A DNA stretch of 26,172 nt, from NCBI GenBank assembly GCA_964447495.1, contig CAYUTF010000032.1, positions 1-26,172 of the forward strand, written 5' to 3'. Of this stretch, positions 11,211 to 21,007 are shown in pieces. Made by a program: the position numbers and the translations under genes. The notes beneath the pieces were generated by a model. The model worked only from the letters and a program-made list of their open reading frames with translations. It was not told where the DNA came from and did no database searches. This DNA is from an uncultured archaeon (GTDB taxonomy: Archaea > Asgardarchaeota > Lokiarchaeia > Sigyniarchaeales > SOKP01). Each line of letters opens with the position of its first letter. Within the stretch, counting starts at the first letter, position 1.

Positions 11211-11293
11211 CTAAGTAAATTATTATTATCTAAGAATTTAAAAAATTTGATAAGAAAAATTATGGTACTTTTGACAAATTAATTTTTCAAAAT
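11211..11293 (-). promoter_or_regulatory. Promoter/operator copy B (TTTAAA box with TTTGAYAA sites)
   Basis: Ungapped similarity to 16143-16225. Imperfect palindrome TTTGACAA-N6-TTTTCAAA at 11270-11291 and a half-site at 11246-11253. Confidence 0.65.
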
Positions 11294-13706: not shown

Positions 13707-14693
13707 TTACTTTAATAAAAGTTCTGTTGCTATATCAAAAGCTATATTATAATCGAAATTTTTTTTACCACGAGTCAATGCGGCTTCTTTAAAAATTTCT
13801 TTCTCAACATTGTATTTAAGTTTTCCAATATCAAGTGCGCCAATTCCATATATTCCCGGATAAAACTCTGTATTATTCATACTAGGATCCATCCCTTCTA
13901 CTCCATAGGGAGGCACTAAATTAATATCAACTACAACTTTATTCGGTGATAATTTCTCCATCACTTCTTTTGAAACCATTTGCACTCCCGCTTTTCCTAC
14001 AGACCAGATAATATCTGCATCTTTTATTATTTCATAATGGTCATCCTCTGAATTTGCTGCAGCTCCTAAAATTTTGTTAGCACCCTTTCCTGCTTTACTT
14101 GTTAACAATTTTGCCAAATCCTTCACATAACCCTCTCTTCGTGATGTGATTATTACATTAGCATTATGTTTCGAAGCAATTAAAGCAGAAATTTGTCCAA
14201 CTGGTCCTGTACCGCCTAAAACAATCACATTCTTTCCCTTCAGGCCTTGATGTCCATGTCTTTTTATGGATTTAATAGTCTTAGCGACAATAGCTGCTGC
14301 AGTAGTATGTGATCCTCTAGGGTCGATTATGATTGGAACTTCAAATGGTGGTACTAATGCATTTATTACATTCTCTGCTATTTTATCGCATTCTTCAACA
14401 TCGGAACCTCCAATAAAAAATACCGTTGGTGCTCCGACTTTTCTTGAAAACATTGCATCTTGGACAAGTTTAACAACGTGATCTGCCCTAATTTTGCAGT
14501 ATGGAATTACTACATCAAATCCTGCATCATATCCCATATTCGTATCAAAAGGGGAACAATATTCGTCTGTATCAAAAAAATAACAAATTTTATCTGATTT
14601 TTCCTTTTTTTTAATAATGATAGGGGTTAATTCGATAATTGATTTTTTTCCCAGCATATTCTCAACTTCTTGATTATTATTATTTTGCACCAT
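13707..14693 (-). CDS. NAD(P)-dependent methylene-H4MPT/H4F dehydrogenase (MtdA/B/C family)
   Basis: SPFDTNMGYDAGFD, LVQDAMFSR, FIGGSD, PPFEV..DPRGSHTTAAA, LGGTGPVG, DINLVPPYGVEG, GIGALDIGKLKY. Confidence 0.85.
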   Translation of the reverse strand: MVQNNNNQEVENMLGKKSIIELTPIIIKKKEKSDKICYFFDTDEYCSPFDTNMGYDAGFDVVIPYCKIRADHVVKLVQDAMFSRKVGAPTVFFIGGSDVEECDKIAENVINALVPPFEVPIIIDPRGSHTTAAAIVAKTIKSIKRHGHQGLKGKNVIVLGGTGPVGQISALIASKHNANVIITSRREGYVKDLAKLLTSKAGKGANKILGAAANSEDDHYEIIKDADIIWSVGKAGVQMVSKEVMEKLSPNKVVVDINLVPPYGVEGMDPSMNNTEFYPGIYGIGALDIGKLKYNVEKEIFKEAALTRGKKNFDYNIAFDIATELLLK

Positions 14694-14733
14694 TTTTTCA
14701 TCATCTCTTTTCTTAACTTTACTCCTATAAAAT

Positions 14734-15465
14734 TTATTTCAAAAGAGCTATTTCAATCTCATCTTCAAGTGCTTTTTCTACTTCCAGGGATTTTATTCTC
14801 CTCTTTATCTTTACTTGTTCGGTTTGAATACCTAGATCTGAAGCCAATTTTTCAATACCCGCAAAATGGCGAGTATCACAGATAAATATCCCTTTTATTT
14901 TCTTATCTTCAATGTCTCTCGCTAAATTTAAGATATTCATCATCATCCAAGCCTCCCTAACATTATATCGTACCTTATCTTCCTCTTGTTCATAATCTTT
15001 TTGCATGTATTCTTTCCAAAGAACAAGTCGTTGGAAAAAGTCATCATTTTCAAAAGCTTTACCTTTTATCTTTAAAATTTGCGTAATCTTTTTTTCTAAA
15101 CTTTTAATCATTTCTCGATGTTCGCTTAAGGCAGCAAAAAGATAATTCTCAGCATTTTCCGAAATGTCTGTTTGCTTAAATGGTATATCTTTTCTTTCAA
15201 ATAATGCTTTTAAAGGATCCACTGAATTAAGGGCGTTATTCCAAAAATTTGGTCTCTCTTCTAATACTAAATGAGGCTTATACTTCTCAATTAATATTTC
15301 CATCAGTTCGATATATTCTTTAGAAATTAAATGAAGATTCCAAACGATATTATCCTTCATGGTTTCAGGAACTTCAAACCACCAGTCTATTGGAAATTCG
15401 CTTTCAACCAAAATCAATTTTAACATTTTATTTTTTAATGGTTTTAATTCTAATACTTCAGGCAT
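14734..15465 (-). CDS. Hypothetical protein, possible TraB/GumN/ChaN-superfamily fold with helical insert
   Basis: 'YKPHLVLEE', 'REAWMMMNI' and 'IFICDTRHFAGI' resemble the TraB-type E, R..xM and GxxH.G motifs. RBS GGAGGT. Confidence 0.55.
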   Translation of the reverse strand: MPEVLELKPLKNKMLKLILVESEFPIDWWFEVPETMKDNIVWNLHLISKEYIELMEILIEKYKPHLVLEERPNFWNNALNSVDPLKALFERKDIPFKQTDISENAENYLFAALSEHREMIKSLEKKITQILKIKGKAFENDDFFQRLVLWKEYMQKDYEQEEDKVRYNVREAWMMMNILNLARDIEDKKIKGIFICDTRHFAGIEKLASDLGIQTEQVKIKRRIKSLEVEKALEDEIEIALLK

Positions 15466-15482
15466 TTTTCTTTTACCTCCTT

Positions 15483-16097
15483 TTAAAATATAATATTTTG
15501 AATAGTATGTTTTTTATTATAAAATACAACCTTTACATCTAAATCTCTTAAATATTGACTTACTTGAGGACAAATGTCTTCACATATGTCTTTTTGGATG
15601 AAATGAATGAAGGAAACGGTTTGATTGTTAAAATTTTTTACTAAATCTAACATTTTCTTTACTATCCATTGCGGTCTCAGTGTCAAACTTAAATAAATTT
15701 CTTTTTGTTGGATTTCTTCTCCCAACATATCAATCCAGTTTTTTAGACTTAAACCCTTATATGACTCTTTATTATCAATATTTTTGTATTCTTCAAACAG
15801 TTCATTCTGTAATTCCTGTTTCTCAACAATTTCTTCGTATAGATATCCCATTGCATACTCTGGAATATCTAACTGATAATAAGGAATATTTAAATCACTT
15901 AATGCTTTAGCAAACGGTGTTTTATGAAATAAACTTATATCCACTTGAAAATCTACGGTAACAAAATTGATTTCTCTTTCTCTAAGAAAGTCAACCAATT
16001 TAGATGTATTTTCATCTTGAAAATATTCTGCATTTTCTTTTGAAATCATATATGTAATTACTTTTTTTTTTACTTTCTTTAATTCTAATACTTCCAT
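15483..16097 (-). CDS. Hypothetical protein, paralog of 14734-15465
   Basis: Shared N-terminus EVLELK; NIPYYQLDIPEYAMGYL vs DIPFKQTDISENAENYL; RPQWIVKKMLDL vs REAWMMMNILNL. RBS GAGGT. Confidence 0.7.
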   Translation of the reverse strand: MEVLELKKVKKKVITYMISKENAEYFQDENTSKLVDFLREREINFVTVDFQVDISLFHKTPFAKALSDLNIPYYQLDIPEYAMGYLYEEIVEKQELQNELFEEYKNIDNKESYKGLSLKNWIDMLGEEIQQKEIYLSLTLRPQWIVKKMLDLVKNFNNQTVSFIHFIQKDICEDICPQVSQYLRDLDVKVVFYNKKHTIQNIIF

Positions 16098-16142: not shown

Positions 16143-16225
16143 CTAAGTAAAAAAACATATGGTCGGAATTTAAAGAATTTGACAAGAAGAATTTTATCAA
16201 ATTTGATAATTTTAATTATCAAAAT
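16143..16225 (-). promoter_or_regulatory. Promoter/operator copy A for the minus-strand operon
   Basis: TTTAAA box at 16169-16174; perfect palindromes TTATCAAATTTGATAA (16194-16209) and TTTGATAATT-TT-AATTATCAAA (16202-16223). Confidence 0.7.
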
Positions 16226-16340
16226 TCTAATTTGAGGAGACAAGATAGTCTTATTAAAAATGAACGTTATATTGATCAATATTCTACATACTATGATCGA
16301 AATGCAACAAACTTATATTTGAGAAAATCAATATTATCAT

Positions 16341-16405: not shown

Positions 16406-18955
16406 TTGATGGATATTTATTCGATATTATCGCATCCGTTTAGGCGTAAAATATTAAATTTACTCGAAAAAGAAGGTTTTATTCCGTACACTGTCTTAAT
16501 GGACAAATTAGGGCTTGATCAGACGGGACAACTTAATTTTCATTTGAAAAAGTTAGGAAATTTAATCGATAAAGATAAAAAATCATATTTCCTCACTGAA
16601 GACGGTAAACGTATAATTCGCATTATGAATTTAAACAAGAGAGTATTATCTGGGGAAGATATAGAATATTTAAATAATAATGCAACTGAGATTAACAGGA
16701 TTGGCGTGATTTTATGCAATTGTAACACGGAAATTTCGAATGTAATAAACATTAATGCACTTCAGTCCTATCTTGAAAAGATTAATAATGTTGTATCAGT
16801 TCAAATTTTTGATAATCTCTGTCAAGAAAAAAACTTAGACAAAATTACCAATTGGATAAAAGAAAATTTTATTAATAAAATCACAATTGCGGCATGTTCT
16901 CCTAAAACTCACCAACATATATTTGAAAGAATCTTTGAGGGAATAATAGATCGTTCTAATATTGAAATAGCAAATATAAGAGAAAATTGTTGTTGGGTCC
17001 ATTATTCTAGTGAGAAACATATGGATTCCCTCATTACTCTAAATAAAGCTCAATTACTCATTGAAGCTGCTATAGAACGAGTTTCTTTGCAAAGAGAAGT
17101 TAAACTTAAACGTGTAGAAGTCGAAAAAAGTTGTGCTATAATAGGAGGAGGGATAGCAGGTATGACCTTAGCTTTAAATTTATCAAGAGCAGGAATAAGA
17201 GTGTACATTATCGAAAAATCACCAACATTGGGAGGTAAAATAGCAAGATGGAGTCGGATTTCTAATATTGGAGATTGTTCAATTTGCTTTATGTCTGAAC
17301 TAATTGGAGAGATAGTGAAAGAAAAAAATATTGAAATATACACTAATACAGAAATAGAGAATGTTTCTGGAGAAGTAGGCAATTTTTCAATAGATTTAAT
17401 TCAAAAACCGCGGTTTGTGGATGAATCTAAATGTACTGGATGTAAACAGTGTATAGAAGTATGTGGACGAGAACAAAAAAATCAATATGAATATGGTTTA
17501 ACCAAAAGGAAAGTTATTTATATTCCATTTCAAAATGCTTATCCTTATGTTCCTATTATTGATGAAATCGATCATGAAACATGTCTTGATTGCAGAATAT
17601 GCGAACGCGCTTGTATCAATAAAGCCATTAATTTAAATCAACAGGCTGAACAAATCAAAATCCGAGTGGGAGCAAAAATTATAGCGATTGGTGCCGATAT
17701 TTCTTTCGATTTAGAAGAATATTCCTATAATCCATATAACAATATTATAACCTCAGCAGAATTTGAAAGAATGCTTTCTTCAGATGGATTTACTGGAGGT
17801 AAAATATCCAAATTAAATGATAAGGGTAAAGTTAATTCAATTTCAATTATACAAGAGGTTGGTCCGTCAAATTACTTATGTGAATACTCAGATATATTAG
17901 CACTAAAATACATTGATGCTATAAAATTACAAAATCCAAATTGTGAAGTTAATGTGTTTTACGATTTAAGTAAATTAACAATTAAAGGTGAAATTCTTTT
18001 GAAATCAACAAATCAAAATTTTATTTATGCCAATCATGTTTCAATAGAAACAAGAGAAGATATTAATTATGTGATTGCCGATTCAATAGAATTTCCAAGT
18101 GATTTGATCATTTTGAATTTGGAATTGATCCCTAATAAAGATATAGCAAATCTAAGAAAATTTATGCACCTTACCATTAATGATAAAGGTTTTATGAGTG
18201 AGGAAACCTTAGCGTCTGGAATATATGGTATAGGGACAATATATGGTCCATTAAATTATAATTCTACAATTTCAAGCTCGAATAATGTTGCATTGAAAAT
18301 AATATCTTTATTATCAAAAGATTATTTATACACGGAATTTAGTGGTATTGAAATTAATCATGATAAATGTGGCTTGTGTGGGTTATGTGTGAATTCTTGT
18401 GATTTTAACGCTATTAATATAGAAGTAGATAAGATTAAAATTGATAAATTCAAATGTAAAGGATGTGGTACTTGTGTTGCTATTTGTCCTACAAATGCGA
18501 TTGAAATGAATATTAATACTTCTGAGAAGATATTTAAAACACTTGAAATTTTTTCTAAATTTAAAAGTAAACCGAAGATTATTGCTTTTTGTTGCCAATC
18601 ATGTGGGTATGCCGCAGCAGATGATGCTGGGTTAAAAAAGATACTCTATAACCCTAATACTTTCATTATTAAAGTTCCCTGTACTGGACGAGTTGATACA
18701 GAATTCATTTTAAAATCTTTTGAACTTGGTTTTAATGGAGTAATGATTTTGGGTTGTAGTAAGAATTCCTGTCGCTATATTAATGGCATTGAAAAAGCTC
18801 AAAAAAAGGTACATCTCTTAAAACAAATTTTAGAACCAAATAAGGCTAAAAGAATTATTATTAAAAGTATAACCGCGATTGAGGGACAAAAGTTTGCAGA
18901 TATTTCAAATAAATTTTATGAACAATTAAGTAGAGGGATAAAAAATAATGCCTAA
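16406..18955 (+). CDS. wHTH (ArsR/DUF-like) - HdrA-like flavoprotein - MvhD triple fusion
   Basis: N-terminal 'ILSHPFRRKILNLL...GQLNFHLKKL...YFLTEDGK' wHTH; HdrA N-domain CNC, AACSP, ANIRENCCWVH; IGGGIAG FAD motif; four CxxCxxCxxxC ferredoxin motifs; MvhD FCCQSC, VPCTGRV, GCSKNSC. Start is TTG 16406 or ATG 16409. Confidence 0.88.
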   Translation: MMDIYSILSHPFRRKILNLLEKEGFIPYTVLMDKLGLDQTGQLNFHLKKLGNLIDKDKKSYFLTEDGKRIIRIMNLNKRVLSGEDIEYLNNNATEINRIGVILCNCNTEISNVININALQSYLEKINNVVSVQIFDNLCQEKNLDKITNWIKENFINKITIAACSPKTHQHIFERIFEGIIDRSNIEIANIRENCCWVHYSSEKHMDSLITLNKAQLLIEAAIERVSLQREVKLKRVEVEKSCAIIGGGIAGMTLALNLSRAGIRVYIIEKSPTLGGKIARWSRISNIGDCSICFMSELIGEIVKEKNIEIYTNTEIENVSGEVGNFSIDLIQKPRFVDESKCTGCKQCIEVCGREQKNQYEYGLTKRKVIYIPFQNAYPYVPIIDEIDHETCLDCRICERACINKAINLNQQAEQIKIRVGAKIIAIGADISFDLEEYSYNPYNNIITSAEFERMLSSDGFTGGKISKLNDKGKVNSISIIQEVGPSNYLCEYSDILALKYIDAIKLQNPNCEVNVFYDLSKLTIKGEILLKSTNQNFIYANHVSIETREDINYVIADSIEFPSDLIILNLELIPNKDIANLRKFMHLTINDKGFMSEETLASGIYGIGTIYGPLNYNSTISSSNNVALKIISLLSKDYLYTEFSGIEINHDKCGLCGLCVNSCDFNAINIEVDKIKIDKFKCKGCGTCVAICPTNAIEMNINTSEKIFKTLEIFSKFKSKPKIIAFCCQSCGYAAADDAGLKKILYNPNTFIIKVPCTGRVDTEFILKSFELGFNGVMILGCSKNSCRYINGIEKAQKKVHLLKQILEPNKAKRIIIKSITAIEGQKFADISNKFYEQLSRGIKNNA

Positions 18956-19694
18956 ACTTTTAATTCATTCATTAACAGGTTGCAGTGGTTGCATCGCAAG
19001 CTTGATGGCTTCTGAGATTTTTCCAAATTTACTTGAACGAGTAGAAGTAATCTCTTTTCCCTTTATATATGATGAAGAGAATATGGAGGATTGTGATATT
19101 GCTTTAATCGAAGGTTGTGTGTCTCAAAAAGCACAAATCGCGATTTTAAAAGAAATAAGATCAAATGCAAATAAAGTAATTGCTTTAGGTACTTGTGCTT
19201 CTTATGGTGGAATTCTCAATCTTTCGAAAGAAAAAAAAGCATATGCCATTTCTGAGTACATAGAAATAGATGGGGTAATTCCTGGATGCCCTCCACCGTC
19301 AAAATTACTTGGAAATAGTATAATGAGATTAATTGAAAATAAAAATTTGGAATTATCAATGAAAAACCTATGTCATAATTGTCCACTAAATGACCTAACT
19401 GATAATACATTTAACACTTTAATCAAAAAAGTTGACTTTTCTTCTGATCCTACAAAAAAAAACGATAAGAATAAATGTTTTCTTCGAAGAGGGGTCTTAT
19501 GTTTAGGTCCAATTACTCGTGAGGGGTGTGATCATACATGTATCAATAATGCTGTACCCTGTGAAGGTTGTTTAGGTCCAGCATCCAAAGATTATACCTC
19601 TAATTTAGTAAACTTACTAAGTATGTTAGATATTTCCAAAGATATAGAATTAGATAGAAGTATTTTTTTTCGTTTCTCTAAACCAAAAACTTAA
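18948..19694 (+). CDS. mvhG: [NiFe]-hydrogenase small subunit, group 3 (MvhG-like)
   Basis: GCSGC, EGCV, GTCASYGG, PGCPP, CHNC, CF...CLGPITREGC..TC...PCEGC. It overlaps the previous stop codon. Confidence 0.85.
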   Translation: MPKLLIHSLTGCSGCIASLMASEIFPNLLERVEVISFPFIYDEENMEDCDIALIEGCVSQKAQIAILKEIRSNANKVIALGTCASYGGILNLSKEKKAYAISEYIEIDGVIPGCPPPSKLLGNSIMRLIENKNLELSMKNLCHNCPLNDLTDNTFNTLIKKVDFSSDPTKKNDKNKCFLRRGVLCLGPITREGCDHTCINNAVPCEGCLGPASKDYTSNLVNLLSMLDISKDIELDRSIFFRFSKPKT

Positions 19695-19705
19695 GGTGAT
19701 TTAAC

Positions 19706-21007
19706 ATAGATAAAATTATAGATGTATGCAAAAGGGTTGAAGGTCATGGCACAGTTGATTATCTAATTCAAAATGAAGCGATATCCCATGTAGAATTCAA
19801 AATAAATGCATTTAGGGGGTTTGAAAACATTCTTGCTGGAAAAAACTTATTCGATATCCCCAAGATTGTCTCAAGAATTTGTGGATTATGTCATACGTCT
19901 CAAACAATTGCAAGCTGCAAAGCTATTGAAAGTTTATTTGAGATAACTCCAAATGCTTTCTCTCTATATTTAAGAAGAGTATTAATGTGTGCTGAATTGA
20001 TAAACTCACATATAATGCATTTCTTTTTCCAAACTTTACCTGATCTAATGGAGATATTTAAAATGGAAAATAATCTGAAAAATCCCTCTAAATTAATTAA
20101 TTTTGATCTGGAATTAACTAAAAATGTATTTAATCTAATAAAAGCATCTAAAGAAATTAATGAACTATTCGGAGGTCGAAGTATTCACTTAATTACAATA
20201 GTGCCGGGAGGAATGTTATACACTCCCTCTCAAAAGAATTATATTTTTCTTCAAAAATTATTGCACAAAATAAGAGTGGAAATTGAATCCATTATTCATA
20301 AATTTATTTCATTGTTCTCGGAATTTCAAACACCAGTAGAATATAATTTATCCAATCCATTTCTAATTGGATTATATAATAATAGTAATTATGACAGATA
20401 TGATGGTAATATTAGAATAAGCAATTGTAGTAATTATGATGAAACCTTCGAGAAAGAAAATTATTCCAACTATTTTGATAAAAACATTAGTCTATTTGGC
20501 ATTAATTTTAAACAAAATAATGAAGACATCGTATTAACAGGTCCGTATTCTCGATATTGGTTACATAATTGTCATAAAAATGAAATAATAGGTGAATTTT
20601 TAAATTCATTTGATAAAGCTTGGAAAATATCGTTAATTTTTACAAGTTTTTTACAATTGGTTGAAATATATAATGAAATTCAATATTGTTTGGAAAATTT
20701 AGATGAATATCAGCTAAATAGCAAATTAAAAATTCCAACCTTAAATAAACTAAAAAAAGTAGATGGAATCGGTATAATTGAAGCTCCAAGAGGGTTTCTC
20801 ATGCATCGCTATCAGTTAAACAAGAAAAACAATGTTGAAAAAGTAAAATTATTCATCGCAACAGAAATAAATATCCCATTAATAAATATGATGATTGAAA
20901 ACTATGCTCAAAAACAATATGAAAAGAAAGATATGGATATAATTAAAAAAAATATACAAATAATGATACGACTTTTTGATCCATGTATTTCTTGTGCTAC
21001 GCATTAA
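19706..21007 (+). CDS. mvhA: [NiFe]-hydrogenase large subunit, group 3 (MvhA-like); ATA start, 433 aa
   Basis: In-frame extension upstream of the tracked ATG 19985 encodes RVEGHG, RGFE and L1 'RICGLC'. EAPRG and L2 'DPCISCATH*' are present. RBS AGGTGA sits 6 nt before ATA 19706, with an in-frame TGA at 19697. Confidence 0.85.
   Translation: MDKIIDVCKRVEGHGTVDYLIQNEAISHVEFKINAFRGFENILAGKNLFDIPKIVSRICGLCHTSQTIASCKAIESLFEITPNAFSLYLRRVLMCAELINSHIMHFFFQTLPDLMEIFKMENNLKNPSKLINFDLELTKNVFNLIKASKEINELFGGRSIHLITIVPGGMLYTPSQKNYIFLQKLLHKIRVEIESIIHKFISLFSEFQTPVEYNLSNPFLIGLYNNSNYDRYDGNIRISNCSNYDETFEKENYSNYFDKNISLFGINFKQNNEDIVLTGPYSRYWLHNCHKNEIIGEFLNSFDKAWKISLIFTSFLQLVEIYNEIQYCLENLDEYQLNSKLKIPTLNKLKKVDGIGIIEAPRGFLMHRYQLNKKNNVEKVKLFIATEINIPLINMMIENYAQKQYEKKDMDIIKKNIQIMIRLFDPCISCATH

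Follow-up and report, generated by a model that had tools for sequence, protein, structure and literature searches.

HdrA2 of Methanosarcina and Methanothrix is an HdrA-MvhD fusion that works with HdrB2C2. PutA of enteric bacteria, a flavoenzyme, uses a DNA-binding domain at its N-terminus to repress its own divergent operon and releases the DNA upon reduction of its flavin, and the regulatory [NiFe]-hydrogenases of group 2b, HoxBC/HupUV, report H2 to transcription via a histidine kinase. For HdrA of the MvhAGD-HdrABC complex (structures 5ODC of M. thermolithotrophicus, 8RVU and 7BKB), excerpts of PMC9012536 give the C-terminal ferredoxin domain as the entry side from MvhD, the inserted ferredoxin domain as the low-potential outlet to ferredoxin, and Cys197 as completing the N-domain cluster of the partner within the HdrA dimer; Lys409 hydrogen-bonds N5 of FAD in the legend to Figure 6C of PMC6405883. 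The exit from FAD to HdrBC is the cluster of the thioredoxin-reductase domain (PMC9012536, legend to Figure 7; PMC13580544), and the high-potential electron passes from FAD through HA4 to HdrB (PMC13580544, PMC12350162). An excerpt of bioRxiv 10.64898/2026.04.10.717634 has E4 of BCRII connect the bifurcating FAD with BamD, and describes in class II benzoyl-CoA reductase, an HdrA-type complex, a winged helix-turn-helix on the MvhD-family subunit BamF that serves as a protein-protein interface, contacting BamI.

The protein encoded in the window (the whole 26,172-nt stretch of DNA that was analysed) belongs, as its Lokiarchaeia form, to an archaeal HdrA-MvhD subfamily with an N-terminal ArsR-type winged helix and its own MvhG/MvhA. 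It shares with HdrA of MvhAGD-HdrABC the domain order from residue 97 onwards, the FAD site, the Lys409 equivalent, the N-domain cluster with the DCSIC cysteines, both ferredoxin domains and an MvhG/MvhA partner. Unlike that protein, it has an added winged helix and MvhD domain, lacks the cluster of Cys386/399/403/404, reads GPLNY for GPKDI, has lost eight residues of one loop, and has no linked hdrB or hdrC. The best NCBIfam match is HdrA2 (NF040770; 566 bits over residues 98-842), but this score is far below the equivalog cut-off of 1100; HdrA2 lacks the winged helix and retains the four cysteines, and a Methanothrix HdrA2 cluster (P0136) was among the relatives found.

The fusion gene and its neighbours

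The gene lies between a divergent operon and two hydrogenase genes:

13707..16097, - strand: divergent operon of unk204 (15483-16097), unk243 (14734-15465) and an MtdB-like gene with Mpt_N (13707-14693)
16409..18955, + strand: winged-helix-HdrA-MvhD fusion gene, 848 aa from ATG or 849 from TTG (16406)
18948..19694, + strand: mvhG-like [NiFe]-hydrogenase small subunit, its start overlapping the hdrA stop by 8 nt
about 19706..21007, + strand: mvhA-like [NiFe]-hydrogenase large subunit with RICGLC and DPCISCATH (frame 19700-21007)

The reading frame from 16406 (TTG) or 16409 (ATG) to 18955 on the + strand is uninterrupted for 849 codons (residues are numbered here with the TTG codon at 16406 as residue 1), and a ribosome-binding site, GGGGGAG, is found 6 nt upstream of the ATG. 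An ArsR-type winged helix is followed by HdrA (phmmer against PDB: 5odc_A, E 2.1e-104, residues 97-714) and then MvhD (5odc_D, E 1.6e-23). The junction between winged helix and HdrA is spanned by contigs of three other sequencing runs (X2, X3 and X4), while a degenerate cluster site at 17852-17908 is fully covered by contigs of X2, X3 and X6 and mostly (to 17891) by one contig of X4; no insertions or deletions are listed. More than 100 independent assemblies contain the same fusion, and a search at E<=1e-140 finds the architecture in 126 of 400 Asgard genomes, a few of these matches being without the winged helix. Values of pN/pS are 0.18-0.33 across all domains, nonsynonymous change being well under synonymous. 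The original prediction of a winged helix and HdrA in one continuous frame is therefore upheld by a single open reading frame with Pfam and phmmer domain calls; the concern that the junction might be an assembly artefact is answered by the bridging contigs and the shared fusion; and the view that the gene is not decaying agrees with this selection and with the invariance of its other cofactor sites among 120 relatives. The names given to these proteins by NCBI are only 'hydrogenase iron-sulfur subunit', 'FAD-dependent oxidoreductase' or 'DUF7347 domain-containing protein'. No published description of the fusion was found, the term 'DUF7347' returning no papers and the remaining literature being judged mostly at listing level.

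The hydrogenase genes match PF01058 (Oxidored_q6-type small subunit) and PF00374 and the large subunit has both the N- and the C-terminal CxxC Ni-Fe motif of group 3 (Mvh/Vhu type), while VhuG, ShyA and VhuA, the NCBIfam models that fit best, all score under their cut-offs; the mvhA-like frame offers no ATG, GTG or TTG start. The order hdrA-mvhG-mvhA is conserved in all ten complete loci and in six of seven loci from other families, the seventh (L057 of family f4) having one 613-aa frame with a NiFe large-subunit domain after hdrA. The hydrogenase subunits are 48-56% identical, compared with 67-70% for the flavoprotein. The genome, which is 98% complete, has only two genes for [NiFe] large subunits, one of them in this operon, and encodes seven further full-length HdrA paralogues. 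The divergent operon, which encodes a methylene-H4MPT-dehydrogenase-like (MtdB-like) protein, is a conserved neighbour of hdrA-mvhGA, and a protein with Mpt_N adjoins the operon in families f19, f31, f21 and f4 as well as in the window.

Cofactor sites kept and lost

The sites of the HdrA and MvhD parts are as follows, all on the + strand:

16694..17110: HdrA N-terminal domain with [4Fe-4S] ligands Cys104/106/139/164, in 120/120 relatives
17144..17161: FAD dinucleotide-binding motif GGGIAG, residues 247-252, in all 17 aligned rows shown and in the window
17273..17287: DCSIC pair Cys291/Cys294, equivalent to Cys194/Cys197 of M. thermolithotrophicus, in 120/120 relatives
17432..17614: inserted ferredoxin domain with two [4Fe-4S] motifs, Cys343-353 and Cys393-403, in 120/120 relatives
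17759..17770: EFER, of which the second Glu (454), kept in the window, aligns with Glu356 of 5odc_A, a residue with a role at the flavin
17852..17908: degenerate thioredoxin-reductase-domain [4Fe-4S] site, residues 483-501, reading QEVGPSNYLCEYSDILALK and ending with the kept Lys501
18188..18211: 8-residue deletion (GFMSE|ETL) relative to the (A)HPKLRPV loop of canonical HdrA
18245..18259: GPLNY replacing GPKDI, residues 614-618
18368..18487: C-terminal ferredoxin domain with two [4Fe-4S] motifs, Cys655-665 and Cys684-694
18578..18931: MvhD (FlpD, PF02662) domain with [2Fe-2S] cysteines, 120.4 bits against a Pfam cut-off of 22.3

Pfam recognizes the FAD Rossmann fold at residues ~243-285, the ferredoxin motifs, and FlpD/MvhD at residues 725-842 (E 6e-35). 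All eight cysteines of the inserted ferredoxin domain, Lys501 (the equivalent of Lys409) and the MvhD cysteines (Cys730/733/759/784/789) are invariant in 120/120 relatives, as are seven of the eight cysteines of the C-terminal ferredoxin domain, the eighth (Cys687) being found in 119/120. The cysteines of the N-domain, DCSIC, the ferredoxin domains and MvhD are also kept in the HdrA paralogues of the same genome. The characters of HdrA that are present thus include the FAD fold with GxGxxG and the Lys409 equivalent, the N-domain cluster and both ferredoxin domains; those that are absent are the thioredoxin-reductase-domain cluster and the genetic partnership with HdrB/HdrC.

At residues 483-501, where 5odc_A has C-x12-C-x3-CC (Cys386/399/403/404) and 7/7 HdrA paralogues of the same genome retain all four cysteines, the window has E/L/S/D at the ligand columns once the nearest cluster-keeping relatives serve as anchor for the alignment, with Cys492 one residue off; three or all four ligands are lost, depending on the choice of alignment. 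Among 120 relatives, none of the four cysteines is present in 91, one in 28 and two in a single protein, and more than two in 0/120. The Lys of GPKDI is replaced in family f1, and the 8-residue deletion is common to all examined winged-helix-fused relatives. Judged from these alignments, the cluster loss is clade-wide and not a strain-specific decay, and the sites for FAD, Lys409, five [4Fe-4S] clusters and the [2Fe-2S] cluster of MvhD are shown to have stayed invariant despite the loss of the cluster between FAD and HdrC/HdrB.

The four cysteines (CCCC) are kept by winged-helix-fused proteins of families f28 (5 loci), f19 (4) and f31 (4) and by P0122, P0123 and P0128; P0124, from a genome named Bathyarchaeia, aligns as C-CC but has four cysteines by eye. 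All four are thus retained in winged-helix-fused relatives of three other Asgard families and Bathyarchaeia. In a tree built without the columns of the winged helix and of the cluster, the 27 fused rows group together as a single clade (SH-aLRT 100), on which the winged helix requires one change of state and the cluster loss at least one. Because the deeper fused lineages retain four cysteines, the fusion is older than the cluster loss and independent of it, and did not require catalytic dismantling. The fusion is shown to be real and ancient and the fused proteins to make up a single clade, in one sub-branch of which the cluster was lost.

[quoted passage not shown] The question whether the cysteines recur as lost in all homologues with a winged helix has a divided answer, yes for all 120 close ones and no for f19, f28, f31, P0122-P0124 and P0128. 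The idea of partly dismantled catalytic wiring stands as to the loss of a cluster and needs correction as to which one: it is that of the thioredoxin-reductase domain, the exit from FAD to HdrBC and not part of the hydrogenase input, so that the dismantled part is the heterodisulfide-reductase branch. CCG/HdrB matches are absent from the contig of the window, 37 being found elsewhere in the genome, and neither hdrB nor hdrC was found in Pfam scans of the window and six related loci. The loss of the heterodisulfide-reductase branch agrees with the lack of hdrB/hdrC near the gene.

The winged helix and the shared promoter element

The features that bear on regulation are:

16166..16226, no strand assigned: conserved composite promoter/operator element AATTTAAAgAATyTGAyAAgAAaAAT-N9-aTTTGAyAA-N6-TTrTCAA
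16310..16362, + strand: proximal promoter of the hdrA operon, TATA-like CTTATATTT, then conserved ATTATCATAGAGA...TTGTCAAA
16409..16660, + strand: ArsR/SmtB-type winged helix (Pfam DUF7347, PF24038), recognized by Pfam, PDB profile and AF2 model
16523-16555, + strand: recognition helix TGQLNFHLKKL within the winged helix

DUF7347 matches residues 3-73 with 42.4 bits (E 8e-11) in the whole protein and 47.6 bits (E 2e-12) when the domain is searched by itself, both above the cut-off of 27.6, whereas the ArsR-type Pfam models stay under theirs (HTH_20, 19.6 bits against 27; HTH_5, 12.3 bits against 22). A profile search of PDB found 1y0u_A, a putative ArsR repressor (9.8e-6), and the AF2 model (pLDDT 85.8) has the topology a1-a2-a3-aR-wing-a5. 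Nearly all of the Foldseek matches listed for it are winged-helix transcription factors, at TM <=0.69 by model and <=0.78 by target, with a best E-value of 3.5e-3. A homodimer model with an a1 + a5 interface scored 0.50, compared with 0.00 for the best of three controls, and the runs agreed on at least 66% of contacts with a partner pLDDT of at least 86; the mark applied is reached by 20/30 proteins whose solved structures are pairs of one chain and by 1/23 whose structures are single chains, and the pass may reflect only likeness to ArsR dimers already solved. In the models, both the ArsR/SmtB fold and the a1/a5 dimer are recovered. The domain thus resembles the ArsR/SmtB repressors (1y0u of Archaeoglobus, NolR-DNA 4omy, CadC 1u2w) in profile, topology and modelled dimer, and differs from standalone members in being joined to a 760-residue redox enzyme. 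As aligned between the window and 38 loci, conservation is highest in the winged helix (median identity 0.79, versus 0.67-0.71 for other domains and 0.55 for the 11-residue linker), and the recognition helix TGxLN(F/Y)HL is retained across overall identities of 36% to 74%.

The composite element contains four half-sites, TTRTCAA/TTGAYAA, at 16179, 16194, 16203 and 16216, and a strict palindrome at 16203-16222; the 308-nt intergenic region as a whole has five TTRTCAA sites. Nowhere else in the genome are TTRTCAAA sites so dense (4 in 39 nt, of 1144 sites in 3.81 Mb), and the strict palindrome has its single occurrence in the 3.8-Mb genome here (0-2 in shuffled sequence); these counts are partly circular because the motif was derived from this region. 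Twelve copies of the element in eight genomes have 29 invariant columns, and where an inserted hdrA paralogue separates the two operons, the element stays at both. At the proximal promoter, a block TTTATATA/TTTAAATA ... ATTATCATGAAGAnAAAtAAATTTGTCAAA recurs in most loci of the same genus, and ATTATCATAGAGA...TTGTCAAA probably spans the expected transcript start.

Three or more sites lie within 300 nt upstream in 23 of 39 loci of family f1, many of these and other loci being close kin rather than independent (L013/L042 and L014/L050 are apparently duplicate records). Strict palindromes number 21 in 294 kb of f1 loci, and there is one in each of 3/3 f21 loci. In six of the 39 f1 loci, the 300 nt upstream contain no site; the five of these with 6-kb flanks all have a cluster ~1.3-1.6 kb upstream, before the preceding co-directional gene (positions for five loci, sequence inspected in four). 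Upstream of f4, f5, f19, f28 and f31, the strict palindrome is found in 0/16 loci and half-sites show only mild enrichment (0-2 per 300 nt); of seven relatives that lack the winged helix, none has a half-site within 300 nt upstream. An operator-like GAYAA repeat and palindrome is thus shown, by comparison of loci, to be conserved at the promoters of the hdrA operon and of unk204-unk243-mtdB-like. Apart from the winged helix, no domain of DNA-binding type is encoded in the conserved gene cluster to which these two promoters belong. A role of the winged helix as a regulator is plausible on these grounds.

Function of the complex

The tentatively favoured reading, which falls somewhat short of being probable, is that the protein is an HdrBC-independent hydrogenase flavoprotein that, like PutA, also regulates its own genes through predicted DNA binding. 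The complex would run without HdrBC, moving electrons between H2 and ferredoxin via the flavin, and a second acceptor beside ferredoxin may take part; since the flavin has one outlet only, bifurcation would need such an acceptor. The link to HdrBC may have been abandoned first, after which the cluster would have become dispensable. The HdrA dimer would pair two winged helices, and the pair would bind GAYAA sites and regulate both operons. Because the winged helix is attached to the N-terminal domain of HdrA, part of the mobile arm, a redox-driven swing of that arm could affect the winged helices and modulate DNA binding. The likeness to PutA lies only in this proposed way of working: the folds are unrelated (ribbon-helix-helix and proline dehydrogenase in PutA, winged helix and HdrA here), and the protein is not a member of that family.

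A serious rival, possible although unlikely, is that the protein is an enzyme only, with the winged helix as a structural or docking module that could hold the unk204/unk243-MtdB-like proteins or a hydrogenase subunit, while a separate transcription factor binds the element. By analogy with the excerpted account of BamF (bioRxiv 10.64898/2026.04.10.717634), such a fold in an HdrA-type setting need not bind DNA, although the helix of BamF is in an adaptor and that of this protein at the N-terminus of HdrA, and the two are likened by description. The conservation of the winged helix would suit a protein interface equally well as a DNA interface, the ArsR-type Pfam models remain under their cut-offs, the strict palindrome is missing in 16/16 loci of five other families with the same winged helix, and another regulator could bind the element. 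Against this, the predicted ArsR topology is complete, including the a1/a5 interface recovered by the dimer model, the recognition helix persists over 36% to 74% overall identity, no other DNA-binding-type domain is encoded in the cluster, and the half-sites are absent upstream of the seven relatives without a winged helix.

Beyond the favoured reading, in which enzyme and regulator are one, it is doubtful that MvhGA/winged-helix-HdrA-MvhD is a one-component H2/redox-sensing transcription factor and the first archaeal 'regulatory hydrogenase'. Fe-S clusters and flavin would then connect the [NiFe] site with a DNA-binding domain of the same polypeptide, the arm that bears the hydrogenase would by its swing put the two winged helices on or off the GAYAA palindrome, and H2 pressure would set the expression of the operon itself and of the methylene-H4MPT-dehydrogenase-like operon. 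Unlike HoxBC/HupUV, this group-3-like enzyme would connect directly to its DNA-binding domain. It is quite improbable that the complex is purely a sensor of H2 or redox state without significant metabolic flux, a counterpart of the bacterial regulatory hydrogenases in which cluster loss marks the end of catalysis. The missing high-potential branch and GPKDI Lys (f1), the lower conservation of the hydrogenase subunits, the seven HdrA paralogues that could carry flux and the single strict operator, as expected of a dedicated autoregulator, would fit; but winged-helix-fused relatives retain the full cluster set, the ferredoxin-output domain and Lys409 are invariant, the operon holds one of the genome's two [NiFe] large-subunit genes, and published reconstructions count Asgard Mvh genes, perhaps including these, as an H2-evolving enzyme (10.1101/726976). 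The earlier proposal of a sensor rather than a decaying gene therefore holds as to decay, whereas a sensor in place of an enzyme is not established in view of the conserved ferredoxin output and the scarcity of [NiFe] genes. A decaying gene or assembly chimera, to which one degenerate cofactor site and an mvhA lacking a canonical start codon might point, is scarcely conceivable and was rejected on the open 849-codon frame, the spread over 126/400 genomes, the indel-free bridging contigs of three other runs and the pN/pS values.

Lokiarchaeia Mvh-Hdr genes are treated in the excerpted reconstructions as 'electron-confurcating MvhADG-HdrABC' (10.1101/726976). The flavoprotein at this locus cannot be wired to HdrBC and has no linked hdrBC; if this locus is the Mvh counted in the reconstructions, the models need another partner or reaction. 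That the MtdB-like operon is a conserved neighbour suggests that the process served or controlled is the C1 (H4MPT) branch. Asgard archaea are the closest archaeal lineage to eukaryotes, and syntrophic H2 metabolism is central to models of eukaryote origin. If the winged helix binds the operator, the protein would combine flavoenzyme and regulator in the manner of PutA, but on the basis of a hydrogenase, and would, if this is true, provide a case of H2/redox state being read into transcription in Asgard archaea.

The fusion gene and its conserved neighbours

The original prediction that a winged helix and an HdrA are joined in one continuous frame is borne out by the open frame itself, by Pfam domains and by phmmer searches against the PDB. 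The DNA of the window is AT-rich (25-40% G+C) and belongs to contig C32; its host genome measures 3.8 Mb and is 98% complete, and the database records of its relatives are named Promethearchaeota or Lokiarchaeia. Residue numbers of the fusion protein count from the TTG codon at 16406.

Features of the fusion gene and the hydrogenase genes
16406 (TTG) or 16409 (ATG) to 18955, + strand: winged-helix-HdrA-MvhD, single open frame
Residues 3-73, + strand: DUF7347 winged helix (Pfam)
Residues ~243-285, + strand: FAD Rossmann domain (Pfam)
Residues 725-842, + strand: FlpD/MvhD domain (Pfam)
18948-19694, + strand: mvhG-like gene, overlapping the hdrA stop by 8 nt
19700-21007, + strand: mvhA-like frame with RICGLC and DPCISCATH motifs

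The hdrA ATG at 16409 lies 6 nt after a GGGGGAG ribosome-binding site. Ferredoxin motifs are also found by Pfam, residues 97-714 match HdrA of the MvhAGD-HdrABC complex of M. thermolithotrophicus (5odc_A, 2.1e-104), and the MvhD part matches 5odc_D (1.6e-23). The best curated NCBIfam family is HdrA2, for which the fusion scores far under the cut-off; in NCBI records the relatives and the fusion type go by 'hydrogenase iron-sulfur subunit', 'FAD-dependent oxidoreductase' or 'DUF7347 domain-containing protein'. No Rfam match at gathering threshold lies within the window.

Near the 5' end of mvhA (19695-19730) there is no ATG, GTG or TTG: a GGTGA ribosome-binding site is followed by TTT AAC ATA GAT AAA ATT ATA GAT GTA TGC, identically in contigs of three other sequencing runs. 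Orthologues of mvhA start with TTG, ATG or GTG 3-6 codons ahead of a conserved VDVC.RVEGHG, and for the window a start at ATA or ATT, or translational coupling, is implied. The order hdrA-mvhG-mvhA is found in 10 of 10 complete related loci and in six of seven loci of other families; in the seventh (L057, family f4), hdrA is followed by one 613-aa frame with a NiFe large-subunit domain. Only two [NiFe] large-subunit genes are present in the genome, the mvhA of the window and another, 24% identical to it, on contig C76. According to PMC11227280, hdrA and frhD/mvhD are always adjacent in Asgard genomes. At loci L015, L017-L021 and L023, a co-directional gene lies about 0.1-1.4 kb upstream of hdrA, and its C-terminus (C..C.DF.NIYADISFGG.G) resembles the FrhB/FdhB family by eye.

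One neighbour is constant: a protein carrying the Mpt_N domain known from methylene-tetrahydromethanopterin dehydrogenase.

Placement of the Mpt_N protein
Families f19 and f31, directly after mvhA: 564-565 aa
Families f21 and f4, divergent strand, behind a 214-222-aa unknown protein: 557-559 aa
Window, behind unk204: counterpart in two parts, unk243 and an MtdB-like protein of 328 aa

By its size and by tblastn hits, unk243 corresponds to the N-terminal half of the long Mpt_N form. Together, unk204, unk243 and the Mpt_N protein form a conserved operon adjoining the hydrogenase operon. The Asgard-specific paralogues unk204 and unk243 (14734-16097, - strand) have no Pfam or NCBIfam family, and in the ESM Atlas they match Asgard hypothetical clusters only, plus a weak lead (0.83) to TraB/GumN. 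For unk243, the AF2 model (pLDDT 82.5) has no Foldseek hit at E<=0.001; in a wide VIA search its best match (Z 8.8) is a tetrapyrrole methylase N-domain with 98 residues aligned, and the match to ChaN (Z 7.9, 143 aligned) is within the stated noise range of the tool.

The degenerate cluster site and the age of the fusion

The cluster motif that had been read as missing three of four cysteines is indeed degenerate. Residues 483-501, QEVGPSNYLCEYSDILALK (nt 17852-17908), align with the stretch of 5odc_A that holds Cys386, Cys399, Cys403 and Cys404 (numbering recomputed here from the 5odc_A alignment). When anchored on the nearest cluster-keeping relatives, the ligand columns read E, L, S and D, and the lone Cys492 is off by one position. 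The genome's seven further full-length HdrA paralogues each keep the four cysteines. GPLNY replaces GPKDI at residues 614-618, and the 8-residue (A)HPKLRPV loop of canonical HdrA is missing (18188-18211). This deletion is common to every winged-helix-fused relative examined, whether or not the cluster is kept, and is a second signature of the clade.

Selenocysteine in place of the missing cysteines was ruled out, there being no in-frame stop and ordinary residues at the ligand columns, and inspection by eye for a replacing NAD(P)-binding site found no GxGxxG in the stretch ISIIQEVGPSNY. A T>C variant at 17848, just before the degenerate site, occurs in contigs of runs X3, X4 and X6 and therefore represents population variation; no variant in the contigs of other runs restores a cluster cysteine. 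The host genome has at least seven more full-length HdrA paralogues as well as double-HdrA fusions of ~1000-1200 aa; several of these have in-frame TGA codons (likely selenocysteine), and the winged helix is absent from all HdrA paralogues found in it.

Canonical HdrA carries six [4Fe-4S] clusters in total, and its Glu356 has a role at the flavin. The fusion protein is expected to carry five [4Fe-4S] and one [2Fe-2S], compared with six and one in the f28 and f19 relatives. The other cofactor motifs are kept, as predicted. In a MAFFT alignment of the window protein with 119 others, drawn from the best 120 of 1213 search matches, the four N-domain cysteines, two DCSIC cysteines, eight inserted-ferredoxin cysteines and five MvhD cysteines are invariant (120/120), as are seven of the eight cysteines of the C-terminal ferredoxin, the eighth being present in 119. 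Equally invariant is Lys501; the residue it aligns with, Lys409, makes a hydrogen bond to N5 of the bifurcating FAD (PMC6405883, Fig 6C legend).

The degenerate motif is part of the thioredoxin-reductase domain, after the inserted ferredoxin domain and before the C-terminal one. Passages in PMC13580544 and PMC12350162 trace the high-potential electron route from FAD through HA4 to HdrB, and bioRxiv 10.64898/2026.04.10.717634 has the equivalent E4 cluster of benzoyl-CoA reductase linking the flavin to BamD. From its position and these routes, the cluster that was lost is the electrical link to heterodisulfide reductase, outside the hydrogenase input. The original proposal of a preserved hydrogenase input with partly dismantled catalytic wiring stands, the dismantled part being the exit to heterodisulfide reductase. 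The gene content agrees: the genome's 37 CCG (HdrB) matches all lie on contigs other than that of the window, and no HdrB or HdrC domain was found in window ORFs of at least 100 aa or among 40 neighbouring proteins scanned at six related loci.

A word-indexed search returned 1213 proteins at E<=1e-10 out of 7998 candidates scored. The best 120 of these (815-855 aa, 64-74% identity) all have at least the recognition helix, and 106 have the entire winged helix; the other 14 start at an internal Met. In one such case that was inspected (L013), the frame extends upstream and encodes a conserved winged helix after a non-canonical start. The sub-lineage concerned (L013 6001-6012; P0052, P0053, P0057, P0058, P0060 and others) has ACG for the hdrA ATG and, one codon upstream and right after the ribosome-binding site, ATT; gene callers begin at the internal Met, giving 815-819-aa forms, and the upstream frame still encodes the winged helix. 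With the mvhA start, this is a second hint at non-canonical start codons in these genomes.

Matches at E<=1e-140 occur in 126 of 400 Asgard genomes scanned, including 91 of 134 from the family of the window, and in 33 of 90 high-quality genomes; a few of them, in families f10, f11, f20 and f26, have no winged helix. Remoter fused proteins with 36-40% identity (P0122, P0123, P0124 and P0128) came from a full HMMER search against 1.84 billion representatives. P0124 is a winged-helix-HdrA-MvhD protein whose cluster members are named Bathyarchaeia in NCBI records, so the fusion is not confined to Asgard archaea.

The expectation that the cysteine losses recur in all winged-helix homologues holds among the 120 close relatives, none of which has more than two cysteines at the four ligand columns (none in 91, one in 28, two in 1), and loci of f21 (n=3), f4 (n=3) and f5 (n=1) also have 0-1. 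It fails further out, where the columns read CCCC in loci of f28 (5), f19 (4) and f31 (4) and in P0122, P0123 and P0128; P0124 has four cluster cysteines as judged by eye. In a maximum-likelihood tree of 45 proteins, from which the winged-helix and cluster columns were taken out beforehand, the 27 fused proteins all group in a single clade (SH-aLRT 100). Next to it, as sister, stand two HdrA-MvhD fusions that have no winged helix (P0130/P0137). One change explains the winged helix; cluster loss needs a minimum of one, the f21/f28 fork lacking resolution. By the tree and the cluster-keeping fused lineages, the fusion is older and the cluster was lost later, in the branch of f1 (the family of the window), f4, f5 and probably f21.

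The winged helix and a candidate operator

A profile of 23 N-termini of fused proteins (A1) matches the putative ArsR repressor 1y0u_A (9.8e-6) and PagR (0.0048). The AlphaFold model of the winged helix (pLDDT 85.8; order a1-a2-a3-aR-wing-a5) has no Foldseek hit at E<=0.001; the matches listed are nearly all winged-helix transcription factors (YodB, NolR on DNA, ArsR, CadC and HlyU), with TM up to 0.69 by model and 0.78 by target. Two copies of residues 1-92 are modelled as a dimer via a1 and a5 with a score of 0.50 (best of three controls 0.00), at least 66% agreement of contacts between runs and partner pLDDT of at least 86. The mark for this score is met by 20 of 30 proteins solved as one-chain pairs and 1 of 23 solved single, and because ArsR dimers are already in the PDB the model is a likeness rather than proof. 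The recognition helix TGxLN(F/Y)HL is conserved throughout the fused clade. Two other proteins were considered as source of the domain or true binder and dropped: a 244-aa winged-helix frame on contig C215, which is membrane-anchored and cut by the contig end, and a 248-aa ArsR-family gene beside the f19 operon (L066), whose translation looks unrelated by eye.

The 308-nt intergenic region between unk204 and hdrA contains five TTRTCAA/TTGAYAA sites (16179, 16194, 16203, 16216 and 16355). Nowhere else in the genome are TTRTCAAA sites as dense as at 16179-16216, where there are four: the total is 1144 in 3.81 Mb, and just three further 150-nt windows have as many as three. The strict palindrome TTGAYAA-N6-TTRTCAA has a single copy in the genome, at 16203 (0-2 in block shuffles). 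All these counts are partly circular because the motif was read from the same region. Conservation is independent evidence for the element: a 56-nt composite, AATTTAAAgAATyTGAyAAgAAaAAT-N9-aTTTGAyAA-N6-TTrTCAA, is present in 12 copies in 8 genomes with 29 invariant columns, even though the synonymous sites of the neighbouring gene are saturated. At L017, L018, L020 and L023, the hdrA and unk204 operons are kept apart by an inserted hdrA paralogue plus one more gene; there, one copy of the element is at the promoter into hdrA and another at the unk204 promoter. At L015, L017-L021 and L023, the conserved operator-like element lies upstream of the co-directional gene preceding hdrA.

Among 39 loci of the window's family, which include two pairs that look like duplicates, 23 have at least three half-sites within 300 nt upstream and six have none. 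Strict palindromes number 21 in 294 kb of these loci; one is found in 3 of 3 f21 loci and none in 16 loci of f4, f5, f19, f28 and f31, which have 0-2 half-sites per 300 nt. Within 300 nt upstream of seven Asgard HdrA-MvhD genes without winged helix there are no half-sites. Nearer hdrA comes a TATA-like box and, after it, a conserved ATTATCAnGAnGA...TTGTCAAA block, which would cover the transcript start. Ten sites genome-wide match the palindrome with at most one mismatch, and no wider regulon is definable from these matches; one of this kind, TTGACAA-N6-TTTTCAA, lies at 11271-11290 between CDC48-like and aminotransferase genes.

Possible functions of the fusion

The main rival to regulation by the fusion protein itself is that the winged helix is a docking module and that the element is the target of some other factor. 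BamF has a winged helix with such a docking role in an HdrA-type complex (bioRxiv 10.64898/2026.04.10.717634), and this explanation is considered possible, if rather unlikely. A pure sensor, as originally proposed, appears improbable. The accompanying claim that the gene is not decaying agrees with the near-invariance of the other ligands and with the comparison of the window with 38 loci of its family, in which non-synonymous differences are 0.16-0.25 per site, synonymous sites are close to saturation (0.67-0.84) and the non-synonymous/synonymous ratio, 0.24-0.33 in the rest of the protein, falls to 0.18 in the winged helix. Amino-acid identity is highest in the winged helix (0.79), followed by the other domains (0.67-0.71) and an 11-residue linker (0.55). 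With run X1, which may be the source sample, left out, the winged-helix/HdrA junction is bridged by contigs of X2, X3 and X4, and the cluster site is covered fully by contigs of X2, X3 and X6 and mostly (to 17891) by one of X4, with no insertions or deletions listed over either. Against these ratios and bridging contigs, decay or an assembly artefact has a negligible chance of explaining the gene.

No publication was found under the domain name DUF7347. The fusion is not described in the accessible parts of PMC11227280, PMC13580544, PMC11237513 and bioRxiv 10.64898/2026.04.10.717634, and the archaeal fusion survey PMC11237513 has, in those parts, HdrA-HdrA and HdrA-MvhD fusions only. The fused form might already stand in the supplementary HdrA-group alignment of PMC9012536 or the gene tables of the Imachi paper.

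For the enzyme part, the best reading is a hydrogenase-flavoprotein complex that works independently of HdrBC. Because lineages with an intact cluster have no linked HdrBC either, the connection to HdrBC had probably fallen idle by the time of the ancestor of the winged-helix clade; the idle cluster would then have decayed in the Lokiarchaeia branch, the parts still in use staying fixed. A second electron, if there is one, may go to the H4MPT C1 branch or to NAD(P), judging from the constant MtdB-like neighbour. The winged helix is attached to the HdrA N-terminal domain. In complexes of this type, a figure legend in PMC12350162 assigns that domain, the C-terminal domain and the hydrogenase to one mobile arm. 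HdrA occurs as an obligate dimer (PMC9012536). A dimeric ArsR-type module would bind the GAYAA element, and its geometry would follow the redox-driven arm. Like PutA, in which enzyme and regulator are one protein, the fusion may couple a GAYAA-binding ArsR-type dimer to a redox-driven arm as an enzyme-regulator, a tentative reading whose chances are put at slightly short of even.
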